A DNA stretch of 40,357 nucleotides from a virus (lineage: Duplodnaviria; Heunggongvirae; Uroviricota; Caudoviricetes), in IMG/VR virus record IMGVR_UViG_2740892106_000010; one strand, 5' to 3'. Shown piece by piece: positions 1,252 to 37,207 of this stretch (positions are counted from its first letter, which is position 1; every line of letters starts with the position of its first letter). Made by a program: the position numbers and the translations under genes. Under the pieces are notes generated by a model. That model ran no database searches, was not told the origin of the DNA, and saw nothing but the letters and a program-made list of their open reading frames with translations.

Positions 1252-1254
1252 CGT

Positions 1255-2746: not shown

Positions 2747-2795
2747 AAATACCTCTCTTGGTTGCAGTGCGGCGCGCGTGGCGCCGCGGTGGTGG

Positions 2796-3737: not shown

Positions 3738-4555
3738 ATGTACATATCCTGTTTGCGTGCCCACTCAGGGCGTTTAATGATTTCCACACCGCCCCATTCA
3801 TCATTGATGCGGCATTCGTGATAGGTATTCAGATCCCGGCGGAACAGAGCGTGCCCGGCATCGACATCCTGCGCATCCAGCTCGAACACGCGTACCGGAT
3901 ACCGACCACAATCAATGCTTTCGCTCACGGCAAGAAAGAAAAAACCATGCGGCTGACCAGTAACCCTCATTGCGCCTTCGCGGTACATTGCGTCCTGCAC
4001 GTGGTAGCGGAATTCCTCGATGTGGCGTGCAAAACGGTCCATATCTGCAACCTTTTTCACGTCGACGATCACGTTGTGCTCGTTCAGCCATTTGTCTGGA
4101 CGAATTCGGCACAACTCCCCCGTCTCTTCATCGTTCCAGTACATTGATGCTTCGCAGTAACCAGGTGCTTCCAACATCCAGCGTGCCGCCGGGTGAGCCA
4201 TTGCGCTATCACGCATCAGCTCCAGTTTCCGCCACTGCTCTGCATCAAGTACCGAAATCCCCATATCCGCAATATCACGAAGAAATGCCTCTTCGTCAGC
4301 TTTACCTTGTTTCGTCCGACGTTCGAATTTCGGTGAAACAATGAAGCGTTTGTCGAACTCTCCAGGCTCCAGAAGCAGACAGTGCAATGCGGTTCCCATA
4401 TCCAGTGCAGACTTTTTCTCTTCGTCTTCTGGTGCTGCCTGAACCCATTTAAGAAGCGCCGGATTCTTGGCAACCATGTCCAGTTGCGACTTACTCACGC
4501 CGTCACCGGCGTGGTAGTCTTCGTTGCTGATGTCGAAATAAATTCCCGGTTTCAT
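3734..4555 (-). CDS. PD-(D/E)XK recombination exonuclease (RecE C-terminal domain / YqaJ-like)
   Basis: 273-aa ORF with AGAGGGA RBS; N-terminal FDISNEDYHAG...SKSQL motif and IVDVKK motif typical of phage PD-(D/E)XK exonucleases. Confidence 0.7.
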   Translation of the reverse strand: MKPGIYFDISNEDYHAGDGVSKSQLDMVAKNPALLKWVQAAPEDEEKKSALDMGTALHCLLLEPGEFDKRFIVSPKFERRTKQGKADEEAFLRDIADMGISVLDAEQWRKLELMRDSAMAHPAARWMLEAPGYCEASMYWNDEETGELCRIRPDKWLNEHNVIVDVKKVADMDRFARHIEEFRYHVQDAMYREGAMRVTGQPHGFFFLAVSESIDCGRYPVRVFELDAQDVDAGHALFRRDLNTYHECRINDEWGGVEIIKRPEWARKQDMYI

Positions 4556-4851
4556 GCCGCGTCCCTCTGCCCATCAAGCTGATCAGCCAGATCCCAGCGG
4601 GCGATAATTGCCATTGCCTCTCGCCGGTAGGAATCCATCAGTTCTTCGAACTCTGGACTGTCTTTAGCGGCCTCCAGTACTTCCTGGCGAACGCCTTTAC
4701 CTGTTACAGCGTCGAAAGTTGAGGCCAGTTGATGAAGCCGGATGCTCTCGATCAGTTCAACTTGTCGGTCATATAGCTGTTCTGACAGGCGGTAGTCCTT
4801 GTCGAATGCCAGCATGATTTTTTGAAGATTTTTCTGCTGATTAACGTTCAT
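4552..4851 (-). CDS. Hypothetical early protein
   Basis: Track ORF 4552..4866 trimmed to the ATG at 4851, which has a strong GGGAGGG RBS; stop overlaps the start of the exonuclease gene. Confidence 0.5.
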   Translation of the reverse strand: MNVNQQKNLQKIMLAFDKDYRLSEQLYDRQVELIESIRLHQLASTFDAVTGKGVRQEVLEAAKDSPEFEELMDSYRREAMAIIARWDLADQLDGQRDAA

Positions 4852-4853
4852 TA

Positions 4854-5006
4854 TCAGCCCTCCCATATCTCGTTATCGTTGGCCACATCGCGAGCTTCTT
4901 TGCTGACGAAAGCCCACTTAATGCCTTCCTGTAAGGTGCGGAACTTCCAGCTCATGAATCCGCATGCAGTAACGCAGTACCAACCGTTGATGATTTTCCA
5001 CTGCAT
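4854..5006 (-). CDS. Small hypothetical protein (50 aa), first ORF of the leftward early operon
   Basis: ORF below the track length cut-off; GAGGT-like RBS upstream of ATG at 5006; lies directly downstream of the leftward early promoter. Confidence 0.3.
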   Translation of the reverse strand: MQWKIINGWYCVTACGFMSWKFRTLQEGIKWAFVSKEARDVANDNEIWEG

Positions 5007-5025
5007 AACTTGTTACCTCGGTCTG

Positions 5026-5102
5026 TTACCGTTGAGGTAATAATTATGCGTATTTGGTTTGATGTCAATAGATATGAGTTAAAAAAATTACCCATTAGGT
5101 AA
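5026..5102. promoter_or_regulatory. Leftward early promoter bracketed by two TTACC-N5-GGTAA palindromes
   Basis: Perfect palindromes at 5026..5040 and 5088..5102; on the minus strand a consensus -35 TTGACA (plus coordinates 5063..5068) and a TAATTA/AATTAT -10 about 17 bp downstream, with the -10 abutting the 5026 palindrome. Confidence 0.55.
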
Positions 5103-5114
5103 TAGTATAGGCAA

Positions 5115-5138
5115 TAAAAAAGCCGCCAGAAGGCGGCT
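5115..5138 (-). terminator. Rho-independent terminator after the repressor gene
   Basis: GC-rich hairpin AGCCGCC-agaa-GGCGGCT followed on the minus strand by a T-run, just downstream of the stop at 5160. Confidence 0.6.
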
Positions 5139-5159
5139 TACTTACTGAAAAATATGATT

Positions 5160-5744
5160 TTATTGTTTGTTTTTTTCGTTCTGGTTGATGACAAATTCAA
5201 TGTAACTTTCGATCTTTGCTTTCTCGGTTTCGGGTAACAATGCGTAGCGCGAGCGGTCATAGTTGATGGTCGCAGGGTCGTGCGGGTGAATCAGTAATTC
5301 ATAGCCGTGACGCCCGAATGCTGATGCAACATTCTCCAGGGTGGAAATGGAAACACTGACCTCATTGTTTAACAGGCGGCTGATTGTCACCTGGGCGACG
5401 CCGGATGCGCGGTGAAGTTTTCCCTGAGTTGAAAGGTCGCGGCTTTCGCTCATCCAGCGTTCCAGGTTGTGAGCCGCCAGCTGACCAATGTCGCTTGGGC
5501 CGACAGGCTGAAAACCTTCCTGAGAAAGCGAGCGATCGATATCAAGCCAGTTACGTGGTTTATTGGCGGCAGCTTCAATTTTTCGCGCAACCTGGTCGCC
5601 GATAACCTTCTTGCCAAGAGCCCAGCGGTTTACCAGATTTGCCTGAGTTCCAAGTTTTTCTGCCATCCGCGTCTGAACACCATTGAATTCACGGTCGATC
5701 AAGTCGTTGAGATTTTGCCTGCGGACGTCCTGGATACTTTTCAT
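5160..5744 (-). CDS. Prophage repressor candidate with two helix-turn-helix (XRE-type) domains and no peptidase S24 domain
   Basis: 194-aa ORF; two HTH-like segments (QTRMAEKLGTQANLVNRWALGKK and VAQVTISRLLNNEVSVSISTLENVA); divergent from a cro-like gene with operator-like palindromes between them; no Ala-Gly/Ser-Lys autocleavage module evident. Confidence 0.7.
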   Translation of the reverse strand: MKSIQDVRRQNLNDLIDREFNGVQTRMAEKLGTQANLVNRWALGKKVIGDQVARKIEAAANKPRNWLDIDRSLSQEGFQPVGPSDIGQLAAHNLERWMSESRDLSTQGKLHRASGVAQVTISRLLNNEVSVSISTLENVASAFGRHGYELLIHPHDPATINYDRSRYALLPETEKAKIESYIEFVINQNEKNKQ

Positions 5745-5799
5745 TTTCTGGAAAATCGCCTCATATATGAATCAGTAGATGATTCAATTTAAAGCAATA

Positions 5800-5862
5800 T
5801 TACCCAACAGGTAAATGCACCTCATGGGTAACTATCCTTGATTTTTGTTACCTTATGGGTGA
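5800..5862. promoter_or_regulatory. Immunity-region operators between the divergent repressor and cro-like genes
   Basis: Three adjacent sites: TTACCcaacaGGTAA (5800..5814, perfect), GCACCtcatgGGTAA (about 5817..5831, degenerate left half) and TTACCttatgGGTGA (5848..5862, one mismatch); a TTGATT -35-like hexamer lies between them. Confidence 0.6.
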
Positions 5863-5898
5863 ATATTTATTATCTGAAATAAATATCAGGCAATAGCT

Positions 5899-6129
5899 AT
5901 GAGCGATAACGGACATTTCGATTTCAAAAAGCACTGGCTTGCACTTACTCCGGATGAGCGTGAAGCCTTCGCACAGGAAGCCGGAACGACGAGTCACTAT
6001 ATCCAGACTCACTTAACAGGTAAGCGCAAAATGCCAGGTAAAGTATTGATGAATGGGCTTTTTAAAGCCTGTAAAACAAGACAATGGCTGCGCTCAAAAG
6101 CAGAACTGGCATACTTCTTCTACTCATGA
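5899..6129 (+). CDS. Cro-like small HTH regulator
   Basis: 76-aa ORF divergent from the repressor; HTH-like segment AQEAGTTSHYIQTHLTGKR; followed by an intrinsic terminator. Confidence 0.55.
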   Translation: MSDNGHFDFKKHWLALTPDEREAFAQEAGTTSHYIQTHLTGKRKMPGKVLMNGLFKACKTRQWLRSKAELAYFFYS

Positions 6130-6151
6130 TATCCAGCTACAACCCTCTGTA

Positions 6152-6174
6152 GACCGCCACCCGGCGGTCTTTTC
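6152..6174 (+). terminator. Rho-independent terminator after the cro-like gene
   Basis: Hairpin GACCGCC-accc-GGCGGTC followed by TTTTC. Confidence 0.6.
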
Positions 6175-6184
6175 ATATCTATTC

Positions 6185-6199
6185 GTACCTCAAAGGTAA
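6185..6199. promoter_or_regulatory. Operator-like site GTACC-N5-GGTAA (one mismatch to the TTACC-N5-GGTAA palindrome)
   Basis: Lies between the cro terminator and the downstream replication genes. Confidence 0.4.
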
Positions 6200-6277
6200 T
6201 AAAAAACCAAATCTGGTTGATCAAATTTTCCAATTGTGCAAAATAGCCAATATCAATAACAAAAAGGGGCGGAAAAA

Positions 6278-6490
6278 TTGAAGATAGTAACCAGAATGGA
6301 GGCCGCAAAAGCCGGGTTAAATCGCTATTTCACAGGAAAGCGGTGCCGTCACGGCCATCTCTCTGAAAGGTATGTTCTGAACGGAACATGTGTTGAATGT
6401 GCAATGAATAGCGCCAACCGCCATCGTAATGAATTTGCTTGTGCACTAAAGAGTGCAAGAGGGGAAACCTATGGCAAGCAGCTGGATTAA
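6278..6490 (+). CDS. Small Cys/His-rich hypothetical protein
   Basis: 70-aa ORF (TTG start in track; alternative ATG at 6296); C-x-H-G-H...C-x-x-C pattern suggests a small zinc-binding protein; sits where cII-like genes occur in lambdoid phages. Confidence 0.4.
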   Translation: MKIVTRMEAAKAGLNRYFTGKRCRHGHLSERYVLNGTCVECAMNSANRHRNEFACALKSARGETYGKQLD

Positions 6491-7301
6491 GGTTGAAGTT
6501 ATCACTCCTGATAAACCTGAAATTTTTCAGATAGCAGAAATTCTGGGTATTGATCCAGATGCTGTTCTTGGAAAGCTGGTTCGTATATGGGCATGGGCTG
6601 ACCAGCAAACAATAGACGGTAACGCTGGCAGCGTTACAAAAGGAGTACTTGATAGACTCGCTTTTATTACAGGATTTGCTGACGCCCTCATTAGCGTCGG
6701 ATGGCTTGCTTATCATGACGGCAAACTAATTCTTCCAAACTTTGAGCGACATAATGGAGAATCATCGAAAAAACGTGCACTTACGAATAGAAGAGTGGCA
6801 GAGCATCGAAAACGAGTAACGCAAAAAGTAACGCCAACAGCGTTACAAAAGGAGTTACCAGAGGAAGAGGAAGAGGAAGATATATATAAAACCCCACACA
6901 TAGCGCACGTGCGCGAGGGTGCTCCGACCAGTGAAGCGAACGGTATGCCGTTGCAGGTGGCTGAACCTGAATTTCTGGATGGCCTGAGTGAACCCATCGG
7001 GAAATTTCCGATGACCGATGGCTGGCATCCGTCGCCGGATTTTCGACGGCGTGCTGCGCTGTGGGGAACGGCCCTGCCGGAACCGGAATTTACACCTGCT
7101 GAACTTGCTGCATTCCGGGATTACTGGATGGCTGAGGGCAAAGTGTTCACGCAGGTTCAGTGGGAACAAAAATTCGCCAGGCACGTAAATCATATCAGGG
7201 GAAAATCAAAAAACGCCGGGAAAAGCGATGAGCTTGACTGGAATAACACTGACTGGATAGAAGGGGTGTGGGATGAAATCAACTCCAGAACTTCTCAATG
7301 A
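6471..7301 (+). CDS. Replication initiator, lambda O-like replisome organizer
   Basis: ATG at 6471 with GGGGAA RBS, in frame with track ORF 6453..7301; acidic linker (EEEEEED); contains DNA-level iteron-like repeats as lambda O does; immediately upstream of a lambda P-like gene. Confidence 0.65.
   Translation: MASSWIKVEVITPDKPEIFQIAEILGIDPDAVLGKLVRIWAWADQQTIDGNAGSVTKGVLDRLAFITGFADALISVGWLAYHDGKLILPNFERHNGESSKKRALTNRRVAEHRKRVTQKVTPTALQKELPEEEEEEDIYKTPHIAHVREGAPTSEANGMPLQVAEPEFLDGLSEPIGKFPMTDGWHPSPDFRRRAALWGTALPEPEFTPAELAAFRDYWMAEGKVFTQVQWEQKFARHVNHIRGKSKNAGKSDELDWNNTDWIEGVWDEINSRTSQ
6619..6855. repeat. Iteron-like repeats (putative replication origin) inside the O-like gene
   Basis: Palindrome GTAACGC-N5-GCGTTAC at 6619..6637 and 6828..6846, an extra GTAACGC at 6816..6822, and the 16-mer GCGTTACAAAAGGAGT at 6631..6646 and 6840..6855 read in different codon phases; followed by a GA-rich then AT-rich stretch. 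Confidence 0.5.
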
Positions 7302-8049
7302 GTACGATCGCTTACGTGAGCATGGTGTTGCTGTGCATGAAGAGCGGCGTGACAGCAATGGCAAAAAGGAGCAGGTTGCTAGAATTTTCAATGAACTATT
7401 TGTCCAGTTACAGGCTGCATTTCCTGCAAGCGTTTCGACCATAAGGGAGCAGAACAAACTTAATGAATTCCGTAAGCAATGGATGCTTGCGTTTCTGGAG
7501 AATGGGATCACAACAATGGAACAGGTTAACGCTGGTATGCGCCACGCCCGCGCCAGTGAATCTCCGTTCTGGCCGTCGCCTGGGCAATTCATCAAGTGGT
7601 GCAAAGACAGCAAGATGGTTCTTGGCGTCACCATTGACGATGTGATGGCGGAGTTTCACCGGTACAGCAAGGAAAAAAGTTTATATCCTGGTGGTCCCGA
7701 AAGATTCCCGTGGCGACATCCGGTTATGTACTGGGTCGTATGTGATACCCGCCGTGCAATGTATCAGCGCCAGCTTAGCGAGATTGAGGTTGAGAAACAC
7801 GCGCGCAGGCTGCTCGATGATTGGGCGAAAAAGGTGGCTTCCGGACAGCAGATACCCGATCCGGTGATCAGCATACAGGCAAAGCCAGAACCCATGAGTA
7901 CACCTCCGGACACAGGGAGAGACGTTTACCATCCACCAGGGCGAAGTTTCGGGTGTATGCCTAACGCCGCCACCCTGGGGGGAATAACACCGGCGCAGTG
8001 GCTGATGGAGGAATACAGGCGGGGAAAGGCGGCAGGATTTATCAAGTAA
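7273..8049 (+). CDS. Lambda P-like replication protein (helicase loader)
   Basis: Recalled similarity to lambda P: FPAS...REQNKLNEFRKQWMLAFLENGITTMEQVNAGMRHAR...PFWPSPGQFIKWC. Confidence 0.85.
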   Translation: MKSTPELLNEYDRLREHGVAVHEERRDSNGKKEQVARIFNELFVQLQAAFPASVSTIREQNKLNEFRKQWMLAFLENGITTMEQVNAGMRHARASESPFWPSPGQFIKWCKDSKMVLGVTIDDVMAEFHRYSKEKSLYPGGPERFPWRHPVMYWVVCDTRRAMYQRQLSEIEVEKHARRLLDDWAKKVASGQQIPDPVISIQAKPEPMSTPPDTGRDVYHPPGRSFGCMPNAATLGGITPAQWLMEEYRRGKAAGFIK

Positions 8050-8086
8050 TACCAGCGCGATAGCGCATTTTTTTACGTCTTGATAA

Positions 8087-8163
8087 TTACCTGTTTGGTA
8101 ATAAAATATTCTAAACTCTATTGATTTCGTGTCTTATGTGGTTTTTAATTACCTCAGGGGTAA
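8087..8163. promoter_or_regulatory. Promoter bracketed by two TTACC-N5-GGTAA palindromes upstream of gene 8167
   Basis: Perfect palindromes at 8087..8101 and 8149..8163; between them TTGATT (-35-like), a 17-bp spacer containing ATGTGGTT, and TTTAAT (-10-like) abutting the second palindrome. Confidence 0.55.
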
Positions 8164-8166
8164 ATC

Positions 8167-8511
8167 ATGAGAAAACAGATACAGGCTCTTGGTCGACTCA
8201 AAACAGGCCAGATGAACAAAACAGAATCTGCGTATTGCCAGCACCTTGAGCTGCGTAAACGTGCAGGGGAAATCGCCTGGTATCGATTCGAGGGTATCAA
8301 GCTGCGGTTAGCTGATAACACGTTCTATACGCCAGATTTCGCTGTGATGCTCGCCACCGGAGAGATGGAACTGCACGAAGTGAAAGGTTTCTGGACCGAC
8401 GACGCCAGGGTGAAAACCAAAGTCGCCGCAGATCAATATCCGTTCCGAATCATCGGGGTAACTGTTAAGCCAAAGAAAGCAGGTGGCGGATGGAAAATCG
8501 AAGAGTTCTGA
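8167..8511 (+). CDS. PD-(D/E)XK-like nuclease family protein (DUF1064/VRR-NUC-like)
   Basis: 114-aa ORF; YTPDF...ELHEVKG motif consistent with a PD-(D/E)XK fold; family name recalled, not searched. Confidence 0.45.
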   Translation: MRKQIQALGRLKTGQMNKTESAYCQHLELRKRAGEIAWYRFEGIKLRLADNTFYTPDFAVMLATGEMELHEVKGFWTDDARVKTKVAADQYPFRIIGVTVKPKKAGGGWKIEEF

Positions 8512-8572
8512 ATCGACGATCTTTTTAGTTATCAATGTAATCAATAAGTTATGTGGATAAGCGAGGGTAAAG

Positions 8573-19263: not shown

Positions 19264-19701
19264 ATGATCACCGACAAACTGTTGATGTTCTCCGAAGCAC
19301 AGGCGGTAACTGATACCGCGGCTTCTACTGACGTAATCGATCTCGGTCCAATTGACGGAAAACGTCGTGATATCGGCGTTGGTTACCCGCTTGAGTTTTG
19401 GGCGCTGGTTAACACAGCCGCCGCGGCAAGCGGTGATGCAACTGTAAACATCCAGTTGCAGACGAGTGAGAATAACAGCTCATGGACCACTATTTATGAT
19501 AGTGGCGCACTGGTAAAGACCGCCCTGACAGCAGGTAAACGAGTTGTTTCTGCAAAGGTGCCTGCCGGTGTTCAGCGATATCTGCGTGTTAACTACTCCG
19601 TCGCAACTGGCCCACTAACGGCTGGCGAATTCACTGCTGGTATCAGTCTTGATGTTGATGCCAATACGCCGTATCCGATCCGCTCAAAAGTAACTGGTTA
19701 A
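19264..19701 (+). CDS. Putative minor capsid or decoration protein
   Basis: 145-aa Ala/Thr/Val-rich ORF directly after the major capsid gene; function is from position only. Confidence 0.4.
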   Translation: MITDKLLMFSEAQAVTDTAASTDVIDLGPIDGKRRDIGVGYPLEFWALVNTAAAASGDATVNIQLQTSENNSSWTTIYDSGALVKTALTAGKRVVSAKVPAGVQRYLRVNYSVATGPLTAGEFTAGISLDVDANTPYPIRSKVTG

Positions 19702-26811: not shown

Positions 26812-28509
26812 ATGCCAATTTACACAGATGATCCGGGACAGGGAATTAACCAGCCAATTGGCAACGCGCCAGCAGGGCTTGGCGAATCGCTGCTTTCTTC
26901 CCTTAAGCAGGGATTTGAAGAGGGGCCGGTCATGTCCGGCTACCGCTTTGCGCAGGCCGACTCGCTGGCGAATGACCCAAACTCTACAGTTATCAGTAAG
27001 CAGGAAGCGGATGAGCTCCTGAAGCAGTACGGCGTAAAGAGCATAAACGTGCCAGATTCTGGCGTTACGCAGGCTTTTCTCGATCATGTTATTGCCGAAC
27101 GCAAAGATTCTCTGGCACGCCAGCAGATCGCGATGTCGGCACCGAGCGGATGGGTAGCCACGCCGCTTAATTTCGCAGCCAGCCTAGCTGGTTCAATGGC
27201 AGATCCTGGTAACGTGGCGCTGGCGCTGGTTCCGTTCGCTGGAGAAGCAAAGGCGGCTTCTGTGCTTGGCCGATTTGGCGAGCGATTTGTTGCTGGTGCA
27301 CGCATGGGGGCAGCGCAGGCGGTGGTGACCGTGCCGCTTACCGGGCTGGCAGCGGCGGCGGAAGGTGACGACTTCACCTATAGCAACGCGTTGGAAAGTA
27401 CTTTCTTTAACACGATGGCTGGCGGTCTAATGCATGCCGGCGGCGGCCTTATCGCCGATATCGTGCGACCGCGTCGCGTTCCCGATGCTGCAACGGGAGA
27501 GTCCCCGGCGTTTTCTGGCGATGCGCAGCCAACCCCGGTGATAACGCCTGACAACATTCCGGCGGGCGTGAATATCCCTGAGGTTGGCGCTAACGCAGAT
27601 CTGGCGGCGGCCATTTCCAGTGAAGCGGAGAGCTACGCATACAGCCGGGCTTATGACGACGTGGTTCCTGACTATATGGCGCGCCAGCAGGAATTACAGA
27701 GCGGTCAGATCGGTAACGTTGCCGACCTGCGTGCCGAGCTTGCGGCTAATCAACGTCATGCTGACTCGCTTGATGCGACGCTGCAGCAGCGCACCAAAAA
27801 GTATCAGGGGCAGCGGATGAAGTTTAAGGATGCGCGCTCTAGGGCACTGAAAGAGATTCAGGCCGAGAAAGACGCCATCGCTGCACGCAATCAGGAGATC
27901 AACACATCGCTGGAGCAGAACGCGACAGCAGAGCAGGCGCGCTGGCGCCAGTCTCAGATTTCCCGCGGTGAGATCCCAGACGACCTGAAAGTCACCATTT
28001 CCGAGCGTGCGCAGCAGATCCTGGACGGCATGCAGATGTCGCCGGTCGCTGGCGCAGTTCGCACTGCCGCAAGCGCCATCAGGGATGCTGACTGGAACGT
28101 GAACCAGCAGGCGTATCGCGCTGCGCTGGCACACATGATGGAAGGACGTAGCCCAGATGTTGAGCCCTTCTATGAACTGCACAAACCGGCACTGCGTGAA
28201 CGCGCCATCCATCGCATACAGAACCCGGCACGGCAGGTTGATGAAACGGCTCGCCCAGCAAGCGAAACAGCCGATCGGGTTTATCAAGAAACGCAAAAGG
28301 CAGATCATGAAATTACCGCTGCCGCTGCAGACCTTGATAACGAGCTCAACCTGAGTAACGCCCTGCTTGACGATATCGCTGTCGATAACCCTGATCTTGC
28401 GACCACGTTGCGCCAGAAACTCAATGATATTCGTGCCGACGCCAGCGACAATAGCATGAGCAACGCTTTCCGGGCATTTGCCGCCTGTATGATTAACCGG
28501 GGGATGTGA
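26812..28509 (+). CDS. Internal virion/ejection protein
   Basis: 565-aa ORF in the same array; Ala-rich with predicted coiled-coil segments. Confidence 0.55.
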   Translation: MPIYTDDPGQGINQPIGNAPAGLGESLLSSLKQGFEEGPVMSGYRFAQADSLANDPNSTVISKQEADELLKQYGVKSINVPDSGVTQAFLDHVIAERKDSLARQQIAMSAPSGWVATPLNFAASLAGSMADPGNVALALVPFAGEAKAASVLGRFGERFVAGARMGAAQAVVTVPLTGLAAAAEGDDFTYSNALESTFFNTMAGGLMHAGGGLIADIVRPRRVPDAATGESPAFSGDAQPTPVITPDNIPAGVNIPEVGANADLAAAISSEAESYAYSRAYDDVVPDYMARQQELQSGQIGNVADLRAELAANQRHADSLDATLQQRTKKYQGQRMKFKDARSRALKEIQAEKDAIAARNQEINTSLEQNATAEQARWRQSQISRGEIPDDLKVTISERAQQILDGMQMSPVAGAVRTAASAIRDADWNVNQQAYRAALAHMMEGRSPDVEPFYELHKPALRERAIHRIQNPARQVDETARPASETADRVYQETQKADHEITAAAADLDNELNLSNALLDDIAVDNPDLATTLRQKLNDIRADASDNSMSNAFRAFAACMINRGM

Positions 28510-31058
28510 TGGCAGCAAACGAATTTTTGACGCAGTGCGAGCGCAGTGTAAATGCTGCCGCTGGTCGCGAGCTTTCTTCCGATGAGATGGAGTCGCTGGT
28601 GCGTGACATGAACGACACCACTAGGCGAATTCTGGCGACCAATGAGGCGCTGTCTCTGGAAGAGGCCGCGATGCGCGCAGCGGAAGAACTGAGCAATGCC
28701 GATATGCTGGCAAAACAGATTGAGGCTCGCAATAAGGCAATCAACGCCCGTATTGCCGCACAACGACTTAGAGAGCTTCGTACTATCTGGAAAGACCGCC
28801 CGGATATCGGGCTTGAAGCAATGCTGGTTGGCCGCAACGATGCGCGTACCGGCGCCCGCCGGTCGGTATCTTCGGAGGTGGCGCAACTGCGCGGCAAGTA
28901 TCATTCCGGTATCAACTACGATTTTGACCGTGCCGGGCTGGTGCAATTCATCGCCAGCGGCAGCAATGACCGGGAAATTGCCGATGCAATGTGGCGCATA
29001 GGGCGCGGGCAGTCAACTGACGGTATGACAAAGCAATCCGTAAGCGCTGCACAAATCATCATGAAATGGCAGGAAACTGCGCGCATTGATGAGAACCGCG
29101 CCGGGGCATGGATACGCAAAGAGCCGGGCTATATAGTGCGCCAGTCACACGACATCATGAAGATCCGCGCCGCAGGTTATGAAGCATGGCGAAATGCTAT
29201 TCTCCCGCGCCTTGATGAGCGCACTTTTGACGGCGTGGCTGACCGCGAGCAGTTCACGCGTAACATTTATAACGGGCTGGCTTCCGGCGTGCATCTTACA
29301 TCTGAAAAGCCCGATTGGATGAATGGCTTTAAGGGATCGGCGAACGCAGCTAAACGCGCCAGCCAAGAGCGAATTTTGCACTTCAAAGATGGTATCTCGT
29401 GGCACGAGTACAACCAGCAATTCGGCACCGGCAGCCTGCGAGAAGCGCTGTTTGGTGGCTTAAACAGCGCTGCCCGCACAACGGGCATGATGCGCGTACT
29501 GGGCACTAACCCACAGAACATGTTTAAGTACCTGACGGACGCCATTGCTGAAGATATCAGCAAATCCGGAAGACCGGCAGCGTTGGCTGACTACATGACG
29601 AAGGTGCGTCGCATTAACCGTACCGTAATGCCGCAGGTTGACGGCTCGCTAAATATTCCTGGCAGCGTAGGCTGGGCCAATGCGTCGGCGGCTGTACGCG
29701 GCTGGTTGCGTATGAGCCAACTTGGTGGCGCGGTAATCTCATCGTTTAACGACGTGCCTATCGCCGCTACCGAGATGCGCTACCAAGGGCAGAATTTTAT
29801 GCAGGCGTTGCTTGGTGCTATGAGAGGCCGCTTCACGCGTTACAACAGCGCGGAGCAGAAAGAGATCCTTTCCTCTATCGGAGTTTATTCCGACTCCATG
29901 ACGCAGGAAATCATCCGGCGCATATCTGGTGATGACACGCTGAATGGAAAGCTTGGTCGCGCGCAGCAGCTTTTCTTTAAGTACAACCTCATGAACTTCT
30001 GGACCGAGAGCGGTCGCAACAGCAACGCCATGATGATAACCAACTGGCTTGCAAAGAATGCTGACCAGTCTCATGCGCGGCTACCGGAAGACCTGCGACG
30101 CGTGCTGGATCTGCACGGTATTGGCGAACGTGAGTGGGAAATTTTTCGCAACATGGACATGGCCGATAGCGAAGGTCGTAAGTTCATGACGACCAGCGGC
30201 ATCCGCGGCGTGCCTGACGAAGTGATTGCCGGTTATGTAGAGAGTAAGGGGATCAAACCAACGCAGCGCGCTATCGCTGACGCACGCGATCAATTGGAAG
30301 GGCAGTTGCGCGGCTACATCCTTGACCGCCTGAATATCGCCATGTCAGAGCCTGGCGATCGCACGCAGGCGTTTATGAAGATGGGCACGGTGCCAGGAAC
30401 GGTGGCTGGGGAAGCAATACGATTCGCTGGTCAGTACAAATCGTTCACTGCAAGCTTCATGCAGAACGTACTAGGACGCGAAGTATTCGGGCGTGGTTAT
30501 ATTCCTGCTGGGCTTGGTGAGTCGAAAACCGGATCGCTGACGAATGCGCTGCTACGTAACGGGAAGGGGGCTTTCCTTGGTGCTGCAAACCTCTTTGTCT
30601 GGGCGACTATGTTTGGTTATATCTCCATGCAGTCAAAACTCATGCTGAAAGGGCAAACACCACGCCCGGCAGATGCCAAGACGTTTCTCGCAGCCGCATC
30701 TCAGGGGGGCGGTCTTGGCATCTTGGGTGACTTCATGTTTGGCGAGGTCAACCGCATGGGGGCCGGGCCGGTTACGTCGCTAATGGGGCCAGCAGCATCG
30801 AACGCTGACAGCATTATCACGCTGCTCCAGCAGACCACGAGAGGGGATGCAGATTTGGGTGACTGGTATCGCACGGCACTTGACAATACGCCATTCCTCA
30901 ACGTGTTCTGGCTTCGTACGGCGATGAATGGTTTAATATTGAACCGGATACAAGATGCCCTTGACCCAGGCTCTCTTGAGCGTTATCAGCGCCGTGTTGA
31001 GCGTGAGCAGGGTAACGACTTTCTGATCCCACCATCGCAGTTCATGCTAGGTAAATAA
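28506..31058 (+). CDS. Large internal virion/ejection protein
   Basis: 850-aa ORF overlapping the upstream stop; last gene of the virion array before the moron island. Confidence 0.55.
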   Translation: MMAANEFLTQCERSVNAAAGRELSSDEMESLVRDMNDTTRRILATNEALSLEEAAMRAAEELSNADMLAKQIEARNKAINARIAAQRLRELRTIWKDRPDIGLEAMLVGRNDARTGARRSVSSEVAQLRGKYHSGINYDFDRAGLVQFIASGSNDREIADAMWRIGRGQSTDGMTKQSVSAAQIIMKWQETARIDENRAGAWIRKEPGYIVRQSHDIMKIRAAGYEAWRNAILPRLDERTFDGVADREQFTRNIYNGLASGVHLTSEKPDWMNGFKGSANAAKRASQERILHFKDGISWHEYNQQFGTGSLREALFGGLNSAARTTGMMRVLGTNPQNMFKYLTDAIAEDISKSGRPAALADYMTKVRRINRTVMPQVDGSLNIPGSVGWANASAAVRGWLRMSQLGGAVISSFNDVPIAATEMRYQGQNFMQALLGAMRGRFTRYNSAEQKEILSSIGVYSDSMTQEIIRRISGDDTLNGKLGRAQQLFFKYNLMNFWTESGRNSNAMMITNWLAKNADQSHARLPEDLRRVLDLHGIGEREWEIFRNMDMADSEGRKFMTTSGIRGVPDEVIAGYVESKGIKPTQRAIADARDQLEGQLRGYILDRLNIAMSEPGDRTQAFMKMGTVPGTVAGEAIRFAGQYKSFTASFMQNVLGREVFGRGYIPAGLGESKTGSLTNALLRNGKGAFLGAANLFVWATMFGYISMQSKLMLKGQTPRPADAKTFLAAASQGGGLGILGDFMFGEVNRMGAGPVTSLMGPAASNADSIITLLQQTTRGDADLGDWYRTALDNTPFLNVFWLRTAMNGLILNRIQDALDPGSLERYQRRVEREQGNDFLIPPSQFMLGK

Positions 31059-31060
31059 TA

Positions 31061-31621
31061 ATGAAGGCAATTATATTTTTTGTTTCAATATTGATGTCTG
31101 CATTTTCTTTTGCAGGGCAAAATGTTAAATGCGAACTTCAATACTTTGGAGATAGCGATAAATTTAAGGTAACTCAGTTTTCTTTTATGGGGATTCCATC
31201 TGATTCATACCTTTATACCTGTGCCGACTGTGGAGGCATCCAGATAAACGTGTTCCCATCTATTCAGACTGTTGCTTCCTACTCATTTGAAAACAACATT
31301 GATTTCGAAAGGAAAATCAATGCTGAATACAACAGAAAAGACATAGCTAAACTTGAGATGGAAAACGTTACTCAAGGCGGGAGAATAAAATATTCAATCA
31401 CCGATACTGGTTTGGCAGAGTTTTACCCAGAGGGCAAAAAGATAAGCTACCTCTACTTTTTAGCCAAGCAACAAAATGGTAAAGAACAAGTAGGTTATTC
31501 AGGATTTGTTACCTCTAACGGGGATAAGTCATGCTCAATTATTGCGACATATCCAGGAAAAGAAATTTCTTTTCTGGGAAGTAAATCTTTAAGCTACTTT
31601 ATGAATCATATATCAATGTAG
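31061..31621 (+). CDS. Secreted protein of unknown function (AT-rich moron)
   Basis: 186-aa ORF with N-terminal signal peptide (MKAIIFFVSILMSAFSFAGQ); markedly lower GC than flanking virion genes; followed by a strong terminator. Confidence 0.6.
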   Translation: MKAIIFFVSILMSAFSFAGQNVKCELQYFGDSDKFKVTQFSFMGIPSDSYLYTCADCGGIQINVFPSIQTVASYSFENNIDFERKINAEYNRKDIAKLEMENVTQGGRIKYSITDTGLAEFYPEGKKISYLYFLAKQQNGKEQVGYSGFVTSNGDKSCSIIATYPGKEISFLGSKSLSYFMNHISM

Positions 31622-31635
31622 TGTGACATGTCACA

Positions 31636-31660
31636 GGCCGCTTTCGCGGCCTTGTTTTTA
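31636..31660 (+). terminator. Rho-independent terminator
   Basis: Hairpin GGCCGC-tttc-GCGGCC followed by a T-rich run. Confidence 0.6.
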
Positions 31661-31819
31661 ACGAATGCCACCGCCGCCCGGACGGGAATCCGCAGAACGC
31701 CCACCGCAGCGGGAGCCGTCAGCAGCAGTGTCGCTGTCGTGCTGACAACGACCGGCAAAGGCCTGAGTTGAAGCTACCAGAGACAACAAAACGAACAGTG
31801 CAGCAAATGCTTTTTTCAT
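31658..31819 (-). CDS. Small secreted Cys-containing peptide (53 aa)
   Basis: Internal ATG of track ORF 31658..31924 giving MKKAFAALFVLLSLVASTQAFA signal peptide followed by a Cys/Gly/Asp-rich tail; weak RBS. Confidence 0.3.
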   Translation of the reverse strand: MKKAFAALFVLLSLVASTQAFAGRCQHDSDTAADGSRCGGRSADSRPGGGGIR

Positions 31820-31911
31820 TGTGAAATTTCCATCTATAAGCCACCTCAATGTGGCGTCAATGAGTGTAGCACTGACTTTTGTTTCGTCCACAAAAAAGCC
31901 CGCGCTGCGGG

Positions 31912-32457
31912 CTATTCCTTCCATTTATCAGAAAAAAGATCTTCTTCTAAAGGCATTGGTTCTGTTTTTGTTTTCTCAAAGAATTGATAACTGATAGTGA
32001 TTGCTGCCTCTTTAAACTCTTCTTGCTCAGTTATGTTGTGGGCATCTGCGTCAACAAAAAACATAACCAGCGCATCACGATTGTGATTTACCGAATAAAC
32101 TAAAAAGCAATCACTTGTTGGTATGCATTTTACTTGCACAGACGCTATATTTTTCCATGCATCCCAAGATGATTTTTTACCAGTGTGTTTTTTATCACTA
32201 TATTCTGGAATATAGTCTTGGTTATCGACATGAGTATGCCTGACATTTAGTTTAAGCATTTCTGTCGGACGAGCAAATGCAGCATCTTTACCAAGAGATG
32301 GATGGTATCCCGTTTTCCAATACTGGGTAAAGGCATCAGATACTTTCTTCAGCTCAAGATCAGATGCACAAAGGGCCGAGAAATTTTGCGTATGCAATAC
32401 TCGACCCTTATATCTGACAATTTGATTTTTATCATTCTGCGACGCAGACGAACTCAT
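31912..32457 (-). CDS. Hypothetical protein (AT-rich moron, 181 aa)
   Basis: ATG at 32457 with AAGGA RBS (track start 32484 is TTG); AT-rich; no recognisable motif. Confidence 0.5.
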   Translation of the reverse strand: MSSSASQNDKNQIVRYKGRVLHTQNFSALCASDLELKKVSDAFTQYWKTGYHPSLGKDAAFARPTEMLKLNVRHTHVDNQDYIPEYSDKKHTGKKSSWDAWKNIASVQVKCIPTSDCFLVYSVNHNRDALVMFFVDADAHNITEQEEFKEAAITISYQFFEKTKTEPMPLEEDLFSDKWKE

Positions 32458-32611
32458 AATTTTCCTTATTGTTACGAGAATCAAAGAAAGCGCGGGATAC
32501 GCGACTTGCGTGATCTTTTGTCATAGTAACTTTTACGTACTCTACGCTTCCATTGAAAGAACGTCTTGCGGCAGCTTGCGCTCTACGCATCTGCAATTTT
32601 TCGTTTCGCAT
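32432..32611 (-). CDS. Small basic protein (59 aa) overlapping the start of the downstream gene
   Basis: ORF below the track cut-off with GAGGT RBS; overlaps the 181-aa gene by about 26 nt in another frame. Confidence 0.25.
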   Translation of the reverse strand: MRNEKLQMRRAQAAARRSFNGSVEYVKVTMTKDHASRVSRAFFDSRNNKENYEFVCVAE

Positions 32612-32758: not shown

Positions 32759-33493
32759 TCAGAAGAACCCTGCCTTGTCGTTGATGTACTCCGCGTGCGT
32801 CTGGATATCACGCAGGCATTTGCTCACACCAACGATGTAGCAGAACATGGTGGTCAGCTCCGCCGCCGCGCCCGATACGTCGTGCCCGTCGTCCTGTAAC
32901 TGGTTCAGCAGATTCATCAGCAGTGAGTTCTCCGTCAGGCCGAGAACACCAGACGGAGAATGAATCAGACTGCGGTAGCCGGGCTTCAGTGGGGCACTGT
33001 ATTCTTTTTTGTCTTCCAGCTTGATCGCCTCCATAATGGCGGGCATGAATTTTTCAATTACCTGAGTGGCCTTTGATAAATCAGCTCCACCTGAGAGACG
33101 AACATCTCCGCTGACATTTGCGGGTTTTCTGTCGAAGTAGCAATCTTCCAGTTTTTCGAAGACCTCCCACGCTTTTTCAGTCTCAAGAATTTTCGCATGT
33201 CGTGCTGCACCGCGAGCGGTCCATAAGAAAAGATGACTTACTTTTGGTGCAATATTAAGCAAACCTCTTTGAGAGGACTCGTTCTTAAATGCTCGTAATT
33301 CTTCGCCTATCAGCTTGAAACAATGTTTTCCCTCAATGAATCGATCTGCATTTCGTTGATAGTTTTGACGAATCAGTTTGGGTTCTGTGTCATACAAATC
33401 AGCAAGCATTTCTGTAGTCATTACAGGGATGTTGCAATGAGTTGTTATCGGCAACTTATCAATAGCTATATTACGCATTTTCATTGCCTCCAT
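32759..33493 (-). CDS. Antirepressor-like protein (ORF6N/Rha-type N-terminal domain plus C-terminal domain)
   Basis: 244-aa ORF; N-terminal region (IPVMTTEMLADLYDTEPKLIRQNYQRNADRFIEGKHCFKL) resembles ORF6N/Rha antirepressor domains; C-terminal about 70 aa is paralogous to the small protein encoded at 34292..34549. Confidence 0.65.
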   Translation of the reverse strand: MEAMKMRNIAIDKLPITTHCNIPVMTTEMLADLYDTEPKLIRQNYQRNADRFIEGKHCFKLIGEELRAFKNESSQRGLLNIAPKVSHLFLWTARGAARHAKILETEKAWEVFEKLEDCYFDRKPANVSGDVRLSGGADLSKATQVIEKFMPAIMEAIKLEDKKEYSAPLKPGYRSLIHSPSGVLGLTENSLLMNLLNQLQDDGHDVSGAAAELTTMFCYIVGVSKCLRDIQTHAEYINDKAGFF

Positions 33494-33977: not shown

Positions 33978-34132
33978 AGCGATACCTCTACTAGTAAGTT
34001 ACCCACCACCGCAACGCCAATTGCTGGTGGTGAACTGGACAAGGTTGGCGTACCGGCCTAGTAGGTACCGGCGCACCTTTCGGTGCCCCTGCCCAGCCCA
34101 CCATAATTCGGATATGACTGTGCTATACGCAT

Positions 34133-34154
34133 AAAAAAACCACGTCTGGCGTGG
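34133..34154 (-). terminator. Rho-independent terminator (minus strand)
   Basis: Hairpin CCACG-ccaga-CGTGG followed on the minus strand by TTTTTTT. Confidence 0.55.
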
Positions 34155-34245
34155 TATGCGCCTACTAGTAATCCGGGACGCCAATCCCGGCACTGGATTT
34201 TGCCAGTGCCCGATTACTATGGCACAAGAGGAGTGCGATGTAAAT

Positions 34246-34744: not shown

Positions 34745-37207
34745 ATGACGGTCTCAACAGAAGTTGACCACAACGAATACACAGGTAACGGCGTTACGAC
34801 ATCATTTCCGTATACCTTCCGTATTTTCAAAAAATCCGACCTGGTTGTTCAGGTGTCTGACCTTAACGGTAACGTTACAGAACTAGTGCTGGATGCTGGT
34901 TATACGGTAACAGGGGCGGGAACTTATAGTGGCGGTGCAGTGGTTCTTCCGTCGCCGCTTGCTGCTGGCTGGCGAATCACGATAGAGCGTGTGCTTGATG
35001 TGGTGCAGGAGACTGATCTTCGCAATCAGGGAAAATTTTTCCCCGAAGTTCATGAGGATGCATTTGACTACCTGACGATGCTGATCCAGCGATGTTTTGG
35101 GTGGTTCAGACGTGCATTGATGAAACCATCTTTGCTTGCAAAATATTACGATGCAAAGCAAAACAGAATATCTAACCTTGCAGATCCATCATTTGAGCAG
35201 GACGCTGTAAATAATCGCTCAATGCGCAATTATGTCGATGCTGCAATCGCCGGGGTTGTTGGTGGTTTTGGTTGGTTTATTCAGTATGGTTCTGGAGCGG
35301 TATACAGAACACTCCAGGATAAGATGCGTGATGGTGTCAGCATTAAGGATTTTGGAGCTCAAAATGGAATCTTAAATGATAACAAGGAGGCTTTTACAAA
35401 ATCATTACATTCGTTTAGCAGTGTTTTTGTTCCGGAAGGGGTATTCAATACATCTTTAGTTTCTCTTTCACGTTGTGGCTTGTACGGAACAGGTGGGGGA
35501 ACGATAAAACAGTATGACAGAGATGGTAATCATCTGGTTTTTAACATGCCCGATGGTGGCATGCTTAGTACGCTAACAATTATGGGAAATAAATCAGATG
35601 ATAGTGTGCAGGGACACCAGGTGTCATTTTCAGGTGGCCATGATGTATCGGTTAAAAATATCAGATTTACAAATACGCGAGGACCAGGATTTAGCTTGAT
35701 CGCTTATCCGAATAATGGTATTCCGTCAGGTTACATTGTTAGAGATATAAGAGGAGAGTATTTAGGGTTCGCAAATAATAAAAAAGCAGGTTGTGTGCTT
35801 TTTGATTCATCGCAAAACACGCTAATTGATGGTGTGATAGCCAGAAATTATCCTCAGTTTGGTGCAGTGGAACTTAAAACAGCAGCAAAATATAACATTG
35901 TCAGCAATGTTATTGGTGAAGAGTGTCAGCACGTTGTTTACAATGGAACTGAGACGGAAACTGCCCCAACGAATAATATCATTAGCAGTGTAATGGCTAA
36001 CAACCCAAAATACGCCGCAGTAGTTGTTGGCAAGGGGACTGGTAACCTGATTTCGGATGTGCTGGTTGATTACTCTGAATCGGACGCAAAGCAGGCGCAC
36101 GGCGTCACCGTTCAGGGAAATAATAATATTGCCAGTAATATTCTAATGACTGGGTGTGATGGGAAAAATGAATCAGGAGATCTGCAGAAATCTACAACCA
36201 TTCGTTTCTTAAATGCTGCAGGCAGTAATTATGCGTCAATATTCCCCATGTATAGTTCTTCTGGCGTGGTTACCTTCGAGGAAGGGTGTATCAGGAACTT
36301 TGTTGAAATTAAACATCCGGGTGATAGAAATAATATTCTGAGTTCTGCATCAGCGGTGACTGGTATTTCCAGTATAGACGGCACTACAAATAGCAATGTT
36401 GTTCATGTCCCTGCTCTTGGTCAGTACATTGGGACTATGTCAGGGCGTTTTGAATGGTGGGTTAAATATTTTAACCTTGCTAACCAGACGCTTGTTTCTG
36501 CAGATAAATTCAGAATGCTTGCTGAAGGCGATGTATCTCTGGCTGTGGGAGGCGGTATAAGTTCGCAATTGAAATTATTCAATAGTGATAATACTAAAGG
36601 CACTATGTCGCTAATAAATGGAAATATTCGAATATCTACTGGAAATTCAGAATATATACAGTTTTCTGATTCAGCCATGACACCATCGACAACGAATACT
36701 TATTCTCTTGGGTTGGCTGGTCGTGCATGGTCGGGGGGATTTACCCAGTCAGCATTTACGGTGCTGTCCGATGCGCGTTTCAAGACTGCTCCAGAGGTTA
36801 TTGATGAGAAAATACTGGACGCATGGGAAAGAGTGGAATGGGTTTCATACCAGTACCTTGACAGGATCGAAGTGAAAGGTAAAGACGGAGCAAGATGGCA
36901 CTTTGGTGCAGTTGCGCAGCATGTTATCAGTGTATTTCAGAATGAAGGCATAGATGTGTCACGACTGGCATTTATCTGTTATGACAAGTGGAATGAGACC
37001 CCGGCAGAATACAGGGATGTGACGGAAGAAGAGCATTCTGCAGGAGTTTACCCACTTATACAGACAAAGGTTCTGGTACGCGAAGCCGTCGAGGCTGGTG
37101 AATGTTACGGTATCCGTTATGAAGAGGCTCTGATTCTGGAATCTGCGATGATGAGACGCAGGGTTAAAAAGCTGGAAGAGCAAGTTTTGCAATTAACAGG
37201 GAATTGA
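34745..37207 (+). CDS. Tailspike/tail fiber with beta-helix-like central region and C-terminal intramolecular-chaperone-like domain
   Basis: 820-aa ORF; conserved podovirus-type N-terminal adaptor region (YTGNGVTTSFPYTF); Asn/Gly/Ser-rich repetitive middle; C-terminal GARWHFGAVAQHVISVF...RLAF motif like peptidase S74 chaperone domains (recalled). Confidence 0.75.
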   Translation: MTVSTEVDHNEYTGNGVTTSFPYTFRIFKKSDLVVQVSDLNGNVTELVLDAGYTVTGAGTYSGGAVVLPSPLAAGWRITIERVLDVVQETDLRNQGKFFPEVHEDAFDYLTMLIQRCFGWFRRALMKPSLLAKYYDAKQNRISNLADPSFEQDAVNNRSMRNYVDAAIAGVVGGFGWFIQYGSGAVYRTLQDKMRDGVSIKDFGAQNGILNDNKEAFTKSLHSFSSVFVPEGVFNTSLVSLSRCGLYGTGGGTIKQYDRDGNHLVFNMPDGGMLSTLTIMGNKSDDSVQGHQVSFSGGHDVSVKNIRFTNTRGPGFSLIAYPNNGIPSGYIVRDIRGEYLGFANNKKAGCVLFDSSQNTLIDGVIARNYPQFGAVELKTAAKYNIVSNVIGEECQHVVYNGTETETAPTNNIISSVMANNPKYAAVVVGKGTGNLISDVLVDYSESDAKQAHGVTVQGNNNIASNILMTGCDGKNESGDLQKSTTIRFLNAAGSNYASIFPMYSSSGVVTFEEGCIRNFVEIKHPGDRNNILSSASAVTGISSIDGTTNSNVVHVPALGQYIGTMSGRFEWWVKYFNLANQTLVSADKFRMLAEGDVSLAVGGGISSQLKLFNSDNTKGTMSLINGNIRISTGNSEYIQFSDSAMTPSTTNTYSLGLAGRAWSGGFTQSAFTVLSDARFKTAPEVIDEKILDAWERVEWVSYQYLDRIEVKGKDGARWHFGAVAQHVISVFQNEGIDVSRLAFICYDKWNETPAEYRDVTEEEHSAGVYPLIQTKVLVREAVEAGECYGIRYEEALILESAMMRRRVKKLEEQVLQLTGN

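Follow-up and report, generated by a model that had tools for sequence, protein, structure and literature searches.

A putatively exported protein of predicted PsbP-like fold in a variable cargo slot of an Escherichia coli prophage: a candidate periplasmic superinfection-exclusion protein

Classical morons, such as bor and lom of phage lambda and gp15 of HK97, have their own promoter; the concept goes back to Juhala, Hendrix and colleagues. Phage T4, a virulent myovirus, makes early in infection the small helical protein Spackle (Sp), which is exported by the Sec pathway as a soluble periplasmic inhibitor of the gp5 tail lysozyme and blocks the cutting of peptidoglycan by a superinfecting phage. 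In the temperate podovirus P22, sieA is flanked by the last ejection-protein gene on one side and the tailspike gene on the other, and it occurs in the prophages of one lineage only, always at that place (PMC10883804). SieA is polytopic and resides in the inner membrane, its gene has a promoter of its own, PsieA, and its function is proven (PMC10883804); the SieA types are about 25% identical and located in the envelope, and SieA blocks DNA injection, with escape mutations mapping to ejection proteins (Leavitt et al. 2024, PMC10883804). Here we describe a gene for a 186-amino-acid (aa) protein in a stretch of 40,357 nucleotides from a Caudoviricetes virus, IMG/VR record IMGVR_UViG_2740892106_000010 (this whole stretch is called the window), a prophage of E. 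coli whose accessory and lysis regions resemble those of phiV10 and whose structural module has no counterpart among isolated phages. Like P22 sieA, the gene stands between the last ejection gene and the tailspike gene and is restricted to one lineage. The original prediction for this region had suggested lysogenic-conversion cargo, with superinfection exclusion among the typical functions, and the closest characterised analogue at this position, P22 sieA, is indeed a superinfection-exclusion gene (PMC10883804). We tentatively propose that the 186-aa product is a periplasmic superinfection-exclusion protein, a reading that we hold to be possible rather than established.

The gene upstream, placed there correctly by the original prediction, encodes an 850-aa protein (Table 1) that closes a T7-type ejection set consisting of a gp14-like protein, an 898-aa SLT-domain protein, a 565-aa protein and the 850-aa protein itself. 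The tailspike downstream has beta-helix and Peptidase_S74 domains, and the lysis cassette is located after it. From position 31,623 rightwards, the window is 97–99% identical to the Escherichia phages TL-2011b, phiv142-3 and HEMP4, and the terminator matches phiV10. The 3' end of the 850-aa gene had no DNA match in isolated phages, and none of the proteins in 50,697 phage records exceeds 49% identity to the 850-aa protein, Stenotrophomonas phage BUCT708 and Pseudomonas phage Ab31 coming closest; phiV10 and epsilon15-type phages were absent among the best 40 records (down to 23% identity).

On its left, a slot is bounded by the conserved end of the ejection gene (...GGGAAATAAT-ATG), and on its right, in nearly all loci compared, by a palindrome or a close variant of it. 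In all contexts with enough flank, which covered E. coli, Salmonella (eight places), Klebsiella, Hafnia and four distant clusters 35–45% identical to the window protein, the member of the 186-aa family starts 2–23 bases past an ejection-gene homologue of 845–855 codons, and ejection-gene homologues 51–92% identical precede every cargo variant. The cargo gene was 12–19 GC points below its upstream gene in seven of seven lineages measured (the window and six related loci). In the window, GC is 0.355 (GC3 0.342) in the 186-aa gene and 0.552 (GC3 0.610) in the adjoining 850-aa gene, so the clearly lower GC that had been claimed is borne out; the label AT-rich, applied to the whole region, suits the 186-aa gene but not the small gene on the opposite strand, over which GC is about 50%.

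Other genes stand at the same junction in GTDB loci whose ejection protein is 78–92% identical to that of the window. Specifically, Klebsiella sp., Leclercia and a metagenome-assembled genome (MAG) carry signal-peptide proteins of the Rap1a family (Pfam PF18602, 48.8–49.1 bits against a cutoff of 27.7, E = 1e-12), Pseudescherichia carries a 67-aa protein with two transmembrane (TM) segments, Serratia a 136-aa lipoprotein with an LSSC lipobox, and in Chimaeribacter that strand is empty. In isolated phages the slot holds a 46-aa two-TM protein (phiV10) or a 98-aa multi-TM protein (BUCT711), and Pseudomonas phage Ab31, whose upstream gene is 45% identical, has no annotated gene there. Because close relatives hold different genes in the slot, the 186-aa gene is accessory cargo and not a structural component, which agrees with the accessory role originally assigned to it. 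Between two of the loci (L004 and L015), the ejection gene showed a non-synonymous divergence (dN) of 0.031 and the cargo gene one of 0.535, and this much faster divergence of the cargo indicates cassette replacement and not simple co-descent. The 186-aa gene is thus interchangeable cargo in a fixed recombination slot, and most of the alternatives are envelope proteins. A conserved near-core gene linked to the ejection protein was also considered, and this view was dropped given the other cargo found beside the 78–92% identical ejection proteins in GTDB.

The N-terminus of the 186-aa protein, MKAIIFFVSILMSAFSFA followed by GQN, has the n/h/c arrangement of a signal peptide (MK-AIIFFVSILMSAFSF-A/G) with small residues at −3 and −1 and no lipobox. 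As criteria for Sec export we used a positive charge at the N-terminus, a hydrophobic core of 10–15 residues, small residues at −3 and −1 and the absence of any other TM segment, and the protein has all of these features. The layout is present in 19 of 19 homologues though the letters vary, and the signal peptide claimed by the original prediction is therefore predicted here as a classical Sec one. No hydrophobic segment was found in the mature protein (Kyte-Doolittle maximum over 19 residues at most 1.03), and likewise none in the mature part of any family member. From these features and the structural model described below, we infer that the product is exported by Sec, cleaved after SFA, and present in the periplasm as a soluble domain of ~19 kDa. 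Weak matches to NlpE (E = 0.033) and T5 Llp (E = 0.3) were confined to the signal-peptide region and were rejected.

A word-indexed homology search with the 186-aa protein returned 17 clusters at 90% identity, from Salmonella, Cronobacter, Citrobacter, Enterobacter, Klebsiella and Hafnia. When 1.84 billion representative proteins were searched exhaustively with a profile, just eight clusters at 50% identity emerged, namely five distinct full-length relatives, the window's own cluster and two short fragments; four of the five full-length distant relatives lie in the ejection-gene slot and one on a 1.5-kb contig beside a SymE toxin gene. The family is found in Enterobacterales only. Among 5426 complete E. 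coli genomes, 54–56 (~1%) carry the gene, always with a window-type ejection gene, and this constant pairing reflects one E. coli phage lineage. The carriers include isolates from human, pig (enterotoxigenic E. coli, ETEC) and poultry. No match was obtained by tblastn of the protein against the 50,697 phage records, and a DNA comparison likewise gave none in isolated phages. In two loci, L015 and L016 (Logan SRR5440666 and NCBI GCA_006035975.1, positions 1–16558), a 45%-identical family member and SLT, 562-aa and 848-aa ejection genes are flanked by an integrase on one side and an AlpA/DUF927-primase module on the other, and further virion genes were not called there; these loci could be a P4-like satellite or a mosaic island with an ejection operon.

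Four cysteines, C24, C54, C57 and C158, are invariant in the 19-sequence alignment, down to 29% identity, and every family member has exactly four cysteines in its mature part; they probably form two disulfides. C54 and C57 constitute a CxxC motif (C-A-D-C in the window, residues 54–57, positions 31220–31231). Note that an invariant CxxC in a non-thioredoxin fold, together with two more invariant cysteines, points to a pair of structural disulfides or else to a redox or metal site. Synonymous sites were saturated in all comparisons of the gene, so that we compared the proportions of non-synonymous (pN) and synonymous (pS) differences and not dN/dS ratios. The pN values were 0.16–0.44 and the pS values ~0.77–0.86; since non-synonymous differences are far fewer than synonymous ones, the gene is under purifying selection. 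According to the original prediction, its cargo reading would fail if the gene proved to be a conserved structural component in related phages. This condition applies in part, as the position at the end of the structural operon is constant and kept in deeply diverged relatives, down to 35% identity, yet the gene is replaced or absent in relatives, and the predicted cleavable signal peptide and periplasmic cysteines are incompatible with cytoplasmic assembly. A virion structural or assembly component is accordingly very improbable, as is a non-functional open reading frame (ORF), against which the strong conservation and a pN well below pS both speak.

The original prediction had recognised no domain in the protein and advised HHpred or a structure prediction. 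Sequence searches agreed with the first point: the profile match is to phrog_11983 (E = 1e-130), a family of unknown function in PHROGs; Pfam, NCBIfam and PADLOC gave no match (no Pfam family at E ≤0.1), and a PDB profile search gave nothing relevant. The predicted fold, on the other hand, is recognisable. AlphaFold2 with 14 close homologues alone produced an unusable model, with a predicted local distance difference test score (pLDDT) of 44, whereas addition of the five distant members gave a good one from the 19-sequence alignment (pLDDT 86.8, predicted template modelling score 0.81). This model has the alpha/beta sandwich that marks the PsbP/Mog1/DcrB-like superfamily. The matching structures, with their figures, were CyanoP (11.6), PsbP (10.0), the Eag chaperone SciW (9.7), Mog1 (9.6), PA0094 (9.5), LpqN (8.9), Apa (8.3), Tsi3 (7.9), DcrB (7.7), TplEi (7.6) and PA3488 (6.5), of which Tsi3, TplEi and PA3488 are immunity proteins of type VI secretion systems (T6SS). 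Foldseek returned the same set of structures, and the BFVD structure library gave two weak lipoprotein matches only. The 186-aa protein is 4–12% identical to members of the Mog1/PsbP/DUF1795 group (CyanoP 2xb3, PsbP 3jcu_P, Mog1 5yfg, DcrB 6e8a, SciW/Eag 6xrb), and its family, unlike this group, has four invariant cysteines with a CxxC motif and is restricted to phages. The modelled family resembles the superfamily in fold while being filed in none of its sequence families. Homology to DcrB was rejected, as hhalign against E. coli DcrB was null (probability 0.05), and an Eag-chaperone-like capture of TM helices of the 850-aa protein was weakened by the finding that the latter has no 19-residue Kyte-Doolittle window above 1.6.

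The fold is also that of Tsi3 (4luq_C), TplEi (5h7y/5h7z) and PA3488 (7wdk_B), small periplasmic proteins that bind an incoming hydrolase, and it supports the main rival explanation, namely that the 186-aa product is an orphan immunity protein that would protect the host in warfare between bacteria by binding and inactivating a periplasm-acting antibacterial effector sent by competitors, such as a T6SS peptidoglycan hydrolase or lipase or a similar toxin. In Klebsiella sp., Leclercia and a MAG the slot is taken by Rap1a/Tai4-family immunity proteins, with Tai4 as their sole PDB relatives, and the signal-peptide, lipoprotein or small-TM nature of the slot-mates would also suit immunity proteins. 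Since the phages' own ejection proteins have no amidase domain for Rap1a, a bacterial target is the simpler one for the Rap1a cargo; self-immunity of Rap1a to an ejection-protein amidase was rejected, as Pfam finds the SLT domain alone there. However, the 186-aa protein, unlike Tsi3, TplEi and PA3488, has no adjacent effector, no T6SS-linked homologue and no sequence similarity to them, and its fold match to them is weaker than that to PsbP. Every site of the family that was examined is a phage slot in which no member lies next to a T6SS or toxin gene, the lone exception being the 1.5-kb contig beside the SymE gene. We regard an immunity role for the 186-aa protein as the leading alternative, though an unlikely one.

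Apa and MTC28, mycobacterial secreted antigens of PsbP fold that are among the fold matches, bear on a different explanation, in which the protein would be a host-interaction or virulence factor that alters surface, adhesion or serum resistance, comparable also to lambda Bor and Lom. A predicted exported product, an AT-rich prophage gene and carriers from human, pig (ETEC) and poultry sources would fit such a role. Having no lipobox, outer-membrane beta-barrel or anchoring signal, however, the protein should stay periplasmic, and it is carried over pathotypes and genera with no visible enrichment and has no characterised homologue, making this role quite improbable in our view.

We then considered how the gene is likely to be transcribed. 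An AGGT resembling a Shine-Dalgarno (SD) sequence lies 8 bases upstream of its ATG, and the junction of 2–23 bases in all related loci leaves no room for an intergenic promoter. A strict scan found no sigma-70 site on the plus strand between 30500 and 31060. A weight-matrix scan gave moderate sites inside the 850-aa gene at −100 (TTGACC-17-TATCAG), −153 and −181 (TTGACA-18-TGTTCT); promoter-like sites of such quality occur at a background of 0.4–0.9 per kb in the structural operon. Downstream, the terminator that the original prediction had noted consists of a stem-loop and TGTTTTT (Table 1), and phiV10 carries the same sequence, annotated there as a terminator. Its hairpin has −16.6 kcal/mol (z = −2.7) on the plus strand and −15.7 kcal/mol (z = −3.9) on the minus strand, where there is no U-run. 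Rfam found no RNA family within 31061–31924. On present evidence, the 186-aa gene appears to be the last gene of the late virion operon and to be transcribed with the late virion genes.

Such transcription would also suit a late lytic accessory protein whose periplasmic action in the dying cell might, for instance, tune lysis, remodel the envelope or spare progeny from debris (lytic conversion, cf. T5 Llp), and which would then not be a trait expressed by the prophage. The 2-base gap to the late operon, the common terminator and an arrangement kept over deep divergence favour a late role of this kind, which is nevertheless improbable: the lysis cassette is elsewhere, after the tailspike; close relatives swap in unrelated proteins including an immunity family, and Ab31 has no annotated gene in the slot; and the 186-aa protein has no similarity to spanins, antiholins or Llp.

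In the exclusion reading that we tentatively prefer, the exported 186-aa protein would act in the periplasm by binding, and thereby neutralising, a machine that breaches the envelope from outside. As its most likely target we favour the apparatus with which superinfecting phages of the same lineage deliver DNA across the periplasm, namely their ejection proteins including the SLT transglycosylase; the protein would then be a soluble equivalent of P22 SieA and would parallel T4 Spackle in function. We ranked a phage target first because the family hardly occurs outside one slot in a single phage lineage and because the exhaustive search gave no relatives beside bacterial toxins. Unlike SieA, the 186-aa protein is predicted to be soluble, periplasmic and disulfide-bonded with a PsbP-like fold, it has no evident promoter, and its exclusion function is a proposal. 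The FxRYPxEAxxFNK motif of SieA types A–C is absent from it, and its sole hydrophobic segment is the signal peptide; it is not a member of the SieA family but, by analogy, may work similarly. With Spackle it shares the nature of an exported soluble periplasmic phage protein (export being predicted here), the two being unrelated in sequence and fold. Like the classical morons, the gene has a deviant composition, is present or absent between relatives, is followed by a terminator and has a predicted envelope product; unlike them, it has no evident promoter of its own.

Several observations weigh against exclusion. The fold is a general protein-binding scaffold whose best matches, PsbP and Mog1, are unrelated to phage, and searches with Pfam, NCBIfam, PADLOC, PDB profiles and hhalign gave no sequence-level link of the protein to any characterised protein. 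Relatives with nearly the same ejection proteins carry unrelated cargo, so that no obligatory pairing exists; one slot-mate belongs to a bona fide T6SS immunity family, which points to the immunity explanation; and in ST512-KPC3phi13.3 the slot holds a 204-aa protein without an export signal. Furthermore, lysogenic conversion requires expression from the prophage, and a gene that adjoins the late operon and lacks an evident promoter is a poor fit with prophage-expressed exclusion, unless an internal promoter or exclusion at a late stage reconciles the two.

A broader and more doubtful proposal concerns the slot as a whole. The lineage may keep a recombination-delimited "periplasmic immunity slot", running from the ejection stop codon to GTGACATGTCAC and the terminator, in which inhibitors of envelope-breaching enzymes, either soluble or in the membrane, are swapped; the 186-aa family would then be a new soluble, disulfide-bonded PsbP-fold class that traps the ejection apparatus or neutralises T6SS-type effectors, beside the recruited Rap1a/Tai4 proteins. 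The palindrome GTGACATGTCAC follows the cargo whatever its kind, as seen in Hafnia (as a variant), Salmonella, Klebsiella sp., Leclercia, Pseudescherichia, phiV10 and BUCT711. Its counts were 3 in phiV10 against 0.13 expected and 4 in the window against 1.6 expected (2 mismatches allowed). The palindrome could serve a dimeric regulator as operator, or it could mark a boundary of recombination.

The 12-base copies (Table 1), which phiV10 has at equivalent sites, lie at module junctions beside terminators: one over the stop codon of a gp55-like regulator, upstream of the terminase genes, one after the terminase genes, and one after the cargo slot. The copy after the terminase genes precedes a convergent ORF resembling Sf6 gene 66. 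A second accessory island, also bounded by the palindrome, follows the terminase genes and contains a tRNA gene and a convergent ORF of the Phage_gp49_66 family. The best sigma-70 match of the region, GTGACA-18-TATGAT (10 of 12 positions, 31634–31605, minus strand), begins in the palindrome beside the 186-aa gene and points leftwards, antisense to the 3' end of that gene.

The original prediction had also claimed a possible 53-aa signal-peptide gene on the opposite strand, and this gene was supported by a match to phrog_14503 over residues 1–53 (E = 2.3e-40; "membrane associated protein", moron category), by a PGAP call (WP_000708858.1) and by purifying selection. Its translation is MKKAFAALFVLLSLVASTQAFA, up to the predicted cleavage site, followed by GRCQHDSDTAADGSRCGGRSADSRPGGGGIR. 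The region had been drawn to 31924, the in-frame upstream ATG of an 88-aa ORF that crosses the neighbour's terminator; because this longer ORF would read through the terminator of the YafO-like gene (31913–31897), the start is placed at 31819. The family comprises 57 clusters in Enterobacterales, named "transmembrane anchored protein". In its members the mature sequence CxHDxDxAxDGSRCGGRSxDSRPGG is near-invariant from E. coli to Pectobacterium and Dickeya, and the signal peptide is variable. In comparison with Klebsiella phages, pN was 0.10–0.12 and pS 0.77, and the gene is under purifying selection. The single hydrophobic stretch of the protein is N-terminal and ends in the signal-peptidase motif AFA/G; to judge from this sequence, cleavage to a secreted 31-residue peptide (~3.1 kDa, isoelectric point ~8) would be at least as likely as membrane anchoring, and one disulfide in the peptide is likely. 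Pfam and PDB searches found no relative of the peptide. HxsA3 was rejected as a relative, as its match was not significant (E = 0.073) and the peptide has one H-x-S and no repeats.

The 53-aa gene lies between an upstream hairpin (31913–31897) and a downstream hairpin (31652–31635) that has no U-run on the minus strand. Its first promoter candidate is TGGACG (31890–31885), 16 bases and TACACT (31868–31863), conserved in Klebsiella phages, and the second is TTGACG (31860–31855), 16 bases and TATAGA (31838–31833); the leader can form the hairpin GCCAC-N6-GTGGC (31855–31840). An upstream alignment with TL-2011b, BUCT711 and ST512-KPC3phi13.3 showed these elements to be partly conserved in Klebsiella phages. 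The gene occurs in 422–442 of the 5426 complete E. coli genomes (~8%) and, without the 186-aa gene, in TL-2011b and Klebsiella Uetakevirus phages; it is absent from the Salmonella, Hafnia and Klebsiella loci bearing the 186-aa gene. The two genes are thus independent and not a unit. With its promoter-like elements, its ORF and its two flanking hairpins, the 53-aa gene makes up a self-contained moron apart from the other gene, and it fits the classical definition better than the 186-aa gene does. Note that, as the hairpin after it lacks a U-run on the minus strand, convergent read-through into the 186-aa gene is possible.

Further to the right lies a leftward operon, whose terminator separates it from the 53-aa gene. 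Its YafO-family toxin gene scored 25.9 bits in Pfam, just over the cutoff of 25, and is overlapped and preceded by a 59-aa ORF (phrog_6685); the same pair occurs in TL-2011b (gp44 and gp45). Placed at the end of the antirepressor operon, the two are a possible toxin-antitoxin pair. At the operon's head, Rfam found a C4 antisense RNA (76.7 bits) and an isrK Hfq-binding RNA (68.1 bits), which suggests a P1/P7-type immI (C4/ant) control region upstream of a 168-aa ORF and the ORF6N antirepressor.

Table 1. Positions of the features discussed (window coordinates unless another locus is named)
Feature	Positions	Strand	Details
850-aa last internal virion (ejection) protein gene; 3' end is the left slot edge	28506-31058	+	phrog_684, E = 9e-272
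Upstream junction	31049-31060	+	SD-like AGGT 31049-31052; TAA of 850-aa gene 31056-31058; 2-base gap; ATG
186-aa gene, predicted exported precursor	31061-31621	+	ATG start, TAG stop, 186 codons; PHROG 11983; RefSeq WP_000643933.1
Predicted Sec signal peptide, residues 1-19	31061-31117	+	MKAIIFFVSILMSAFSFA/G; n/h/c layout
Perfect palindrome directly after the stop codon; right slot edge	31622-31635		TGTGACATGTCACA; seen in the sequence
Intrinsic terminator of late virion operon	31635-31658	+	Stem-loop AGGCCGC-TTTC-GCGGCCT (31635-31652), then TGTTTTT
53-aa precursor gene	31658-31819	-	ATG 31819, stop 31660-31658; predicted 31-residue mature peptide, two cysteines; PHROG 14503
Promoter-like elements and 5' leader of 53-aa gene	31833-31890	-	Consensus resemblance only; not listed by strict scan
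Terminator of leftward antirepressor/YafO-like operon	31897-31913	-	AGCCCGC-AGC-GCGGGCT, then TTTTTT
YafO-family toxin gene	31912-32484	-	
59-aa ORF	32432-32611	-	phrog_6685
ORF6N antirepressor	32759-33493		
C4 antisense RNA	34023-34108	-	
isrK Hfq-binding RNA	34133-34209	-	
Tailspike gene	34745-37207		
Phage_gp49_66 family ORF, second island	14261-14617	-	
tRNA gene, second island	14819-14892	-	73.3 bits
Copies of GTGACATGTCAC, window	11980-11991, 14245-14256, 31623-31634		
Copies of GTGACATGTCAC, phiV10 (L028)	2262-2273, 19493-19504		
Rap1a/Tai4 slot genes in other loci	L019:7547-7930, L022:7547-7930, L020:7556-7912, L025:1007-1363		phrog_3870

Both ORFs are already annotated by PGAP as "hypothetical protein", their host records being RefSeq E. 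coli genomes in which they lie as prophage, and both are catalogued in PHROGs, so that their existence is not new. In the literature searched, there was no mention of WP_000643933, of the phage "transmembrane anchored protein" or of prophage-borne Rap1a/Tai4, and nothing on the fold assignment or on a cargo slot with a palindrome boundary. What is new here is the confident fold assignment, the cargo slot with its palindrome boundary, and the Rap1a/Tai4-family proteins in the slot of sibling prophages. The 186-aa gene is of a known kind, an envelope-directed and probably protective accessory gene carried by a temperate phage.

About 1% of complete E. coli genomes bear the uncharacterised 186-aa protein and about 8% the small peptide, and many Salmonella and Klebsiella genomes bear the 186-aa protein. 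Should the 186-aa protein keep phage DNA from entering, then a podovirus lineage without an isolated close relative in the phage collection searched would possess an exclusion factor that is soluble and periplasmic, and this would bear on host range in phage therapy and on how ejection proteins cross the periplasm. If it or its Rap1a slot-mates instead neutralise T6SS effectors, prophages would provide a route, none of which was described in the literature searched, for spreading immunity to interbacterial weapons. Either way, the slot is a defined place in which to seek new envelope-defence proteins.

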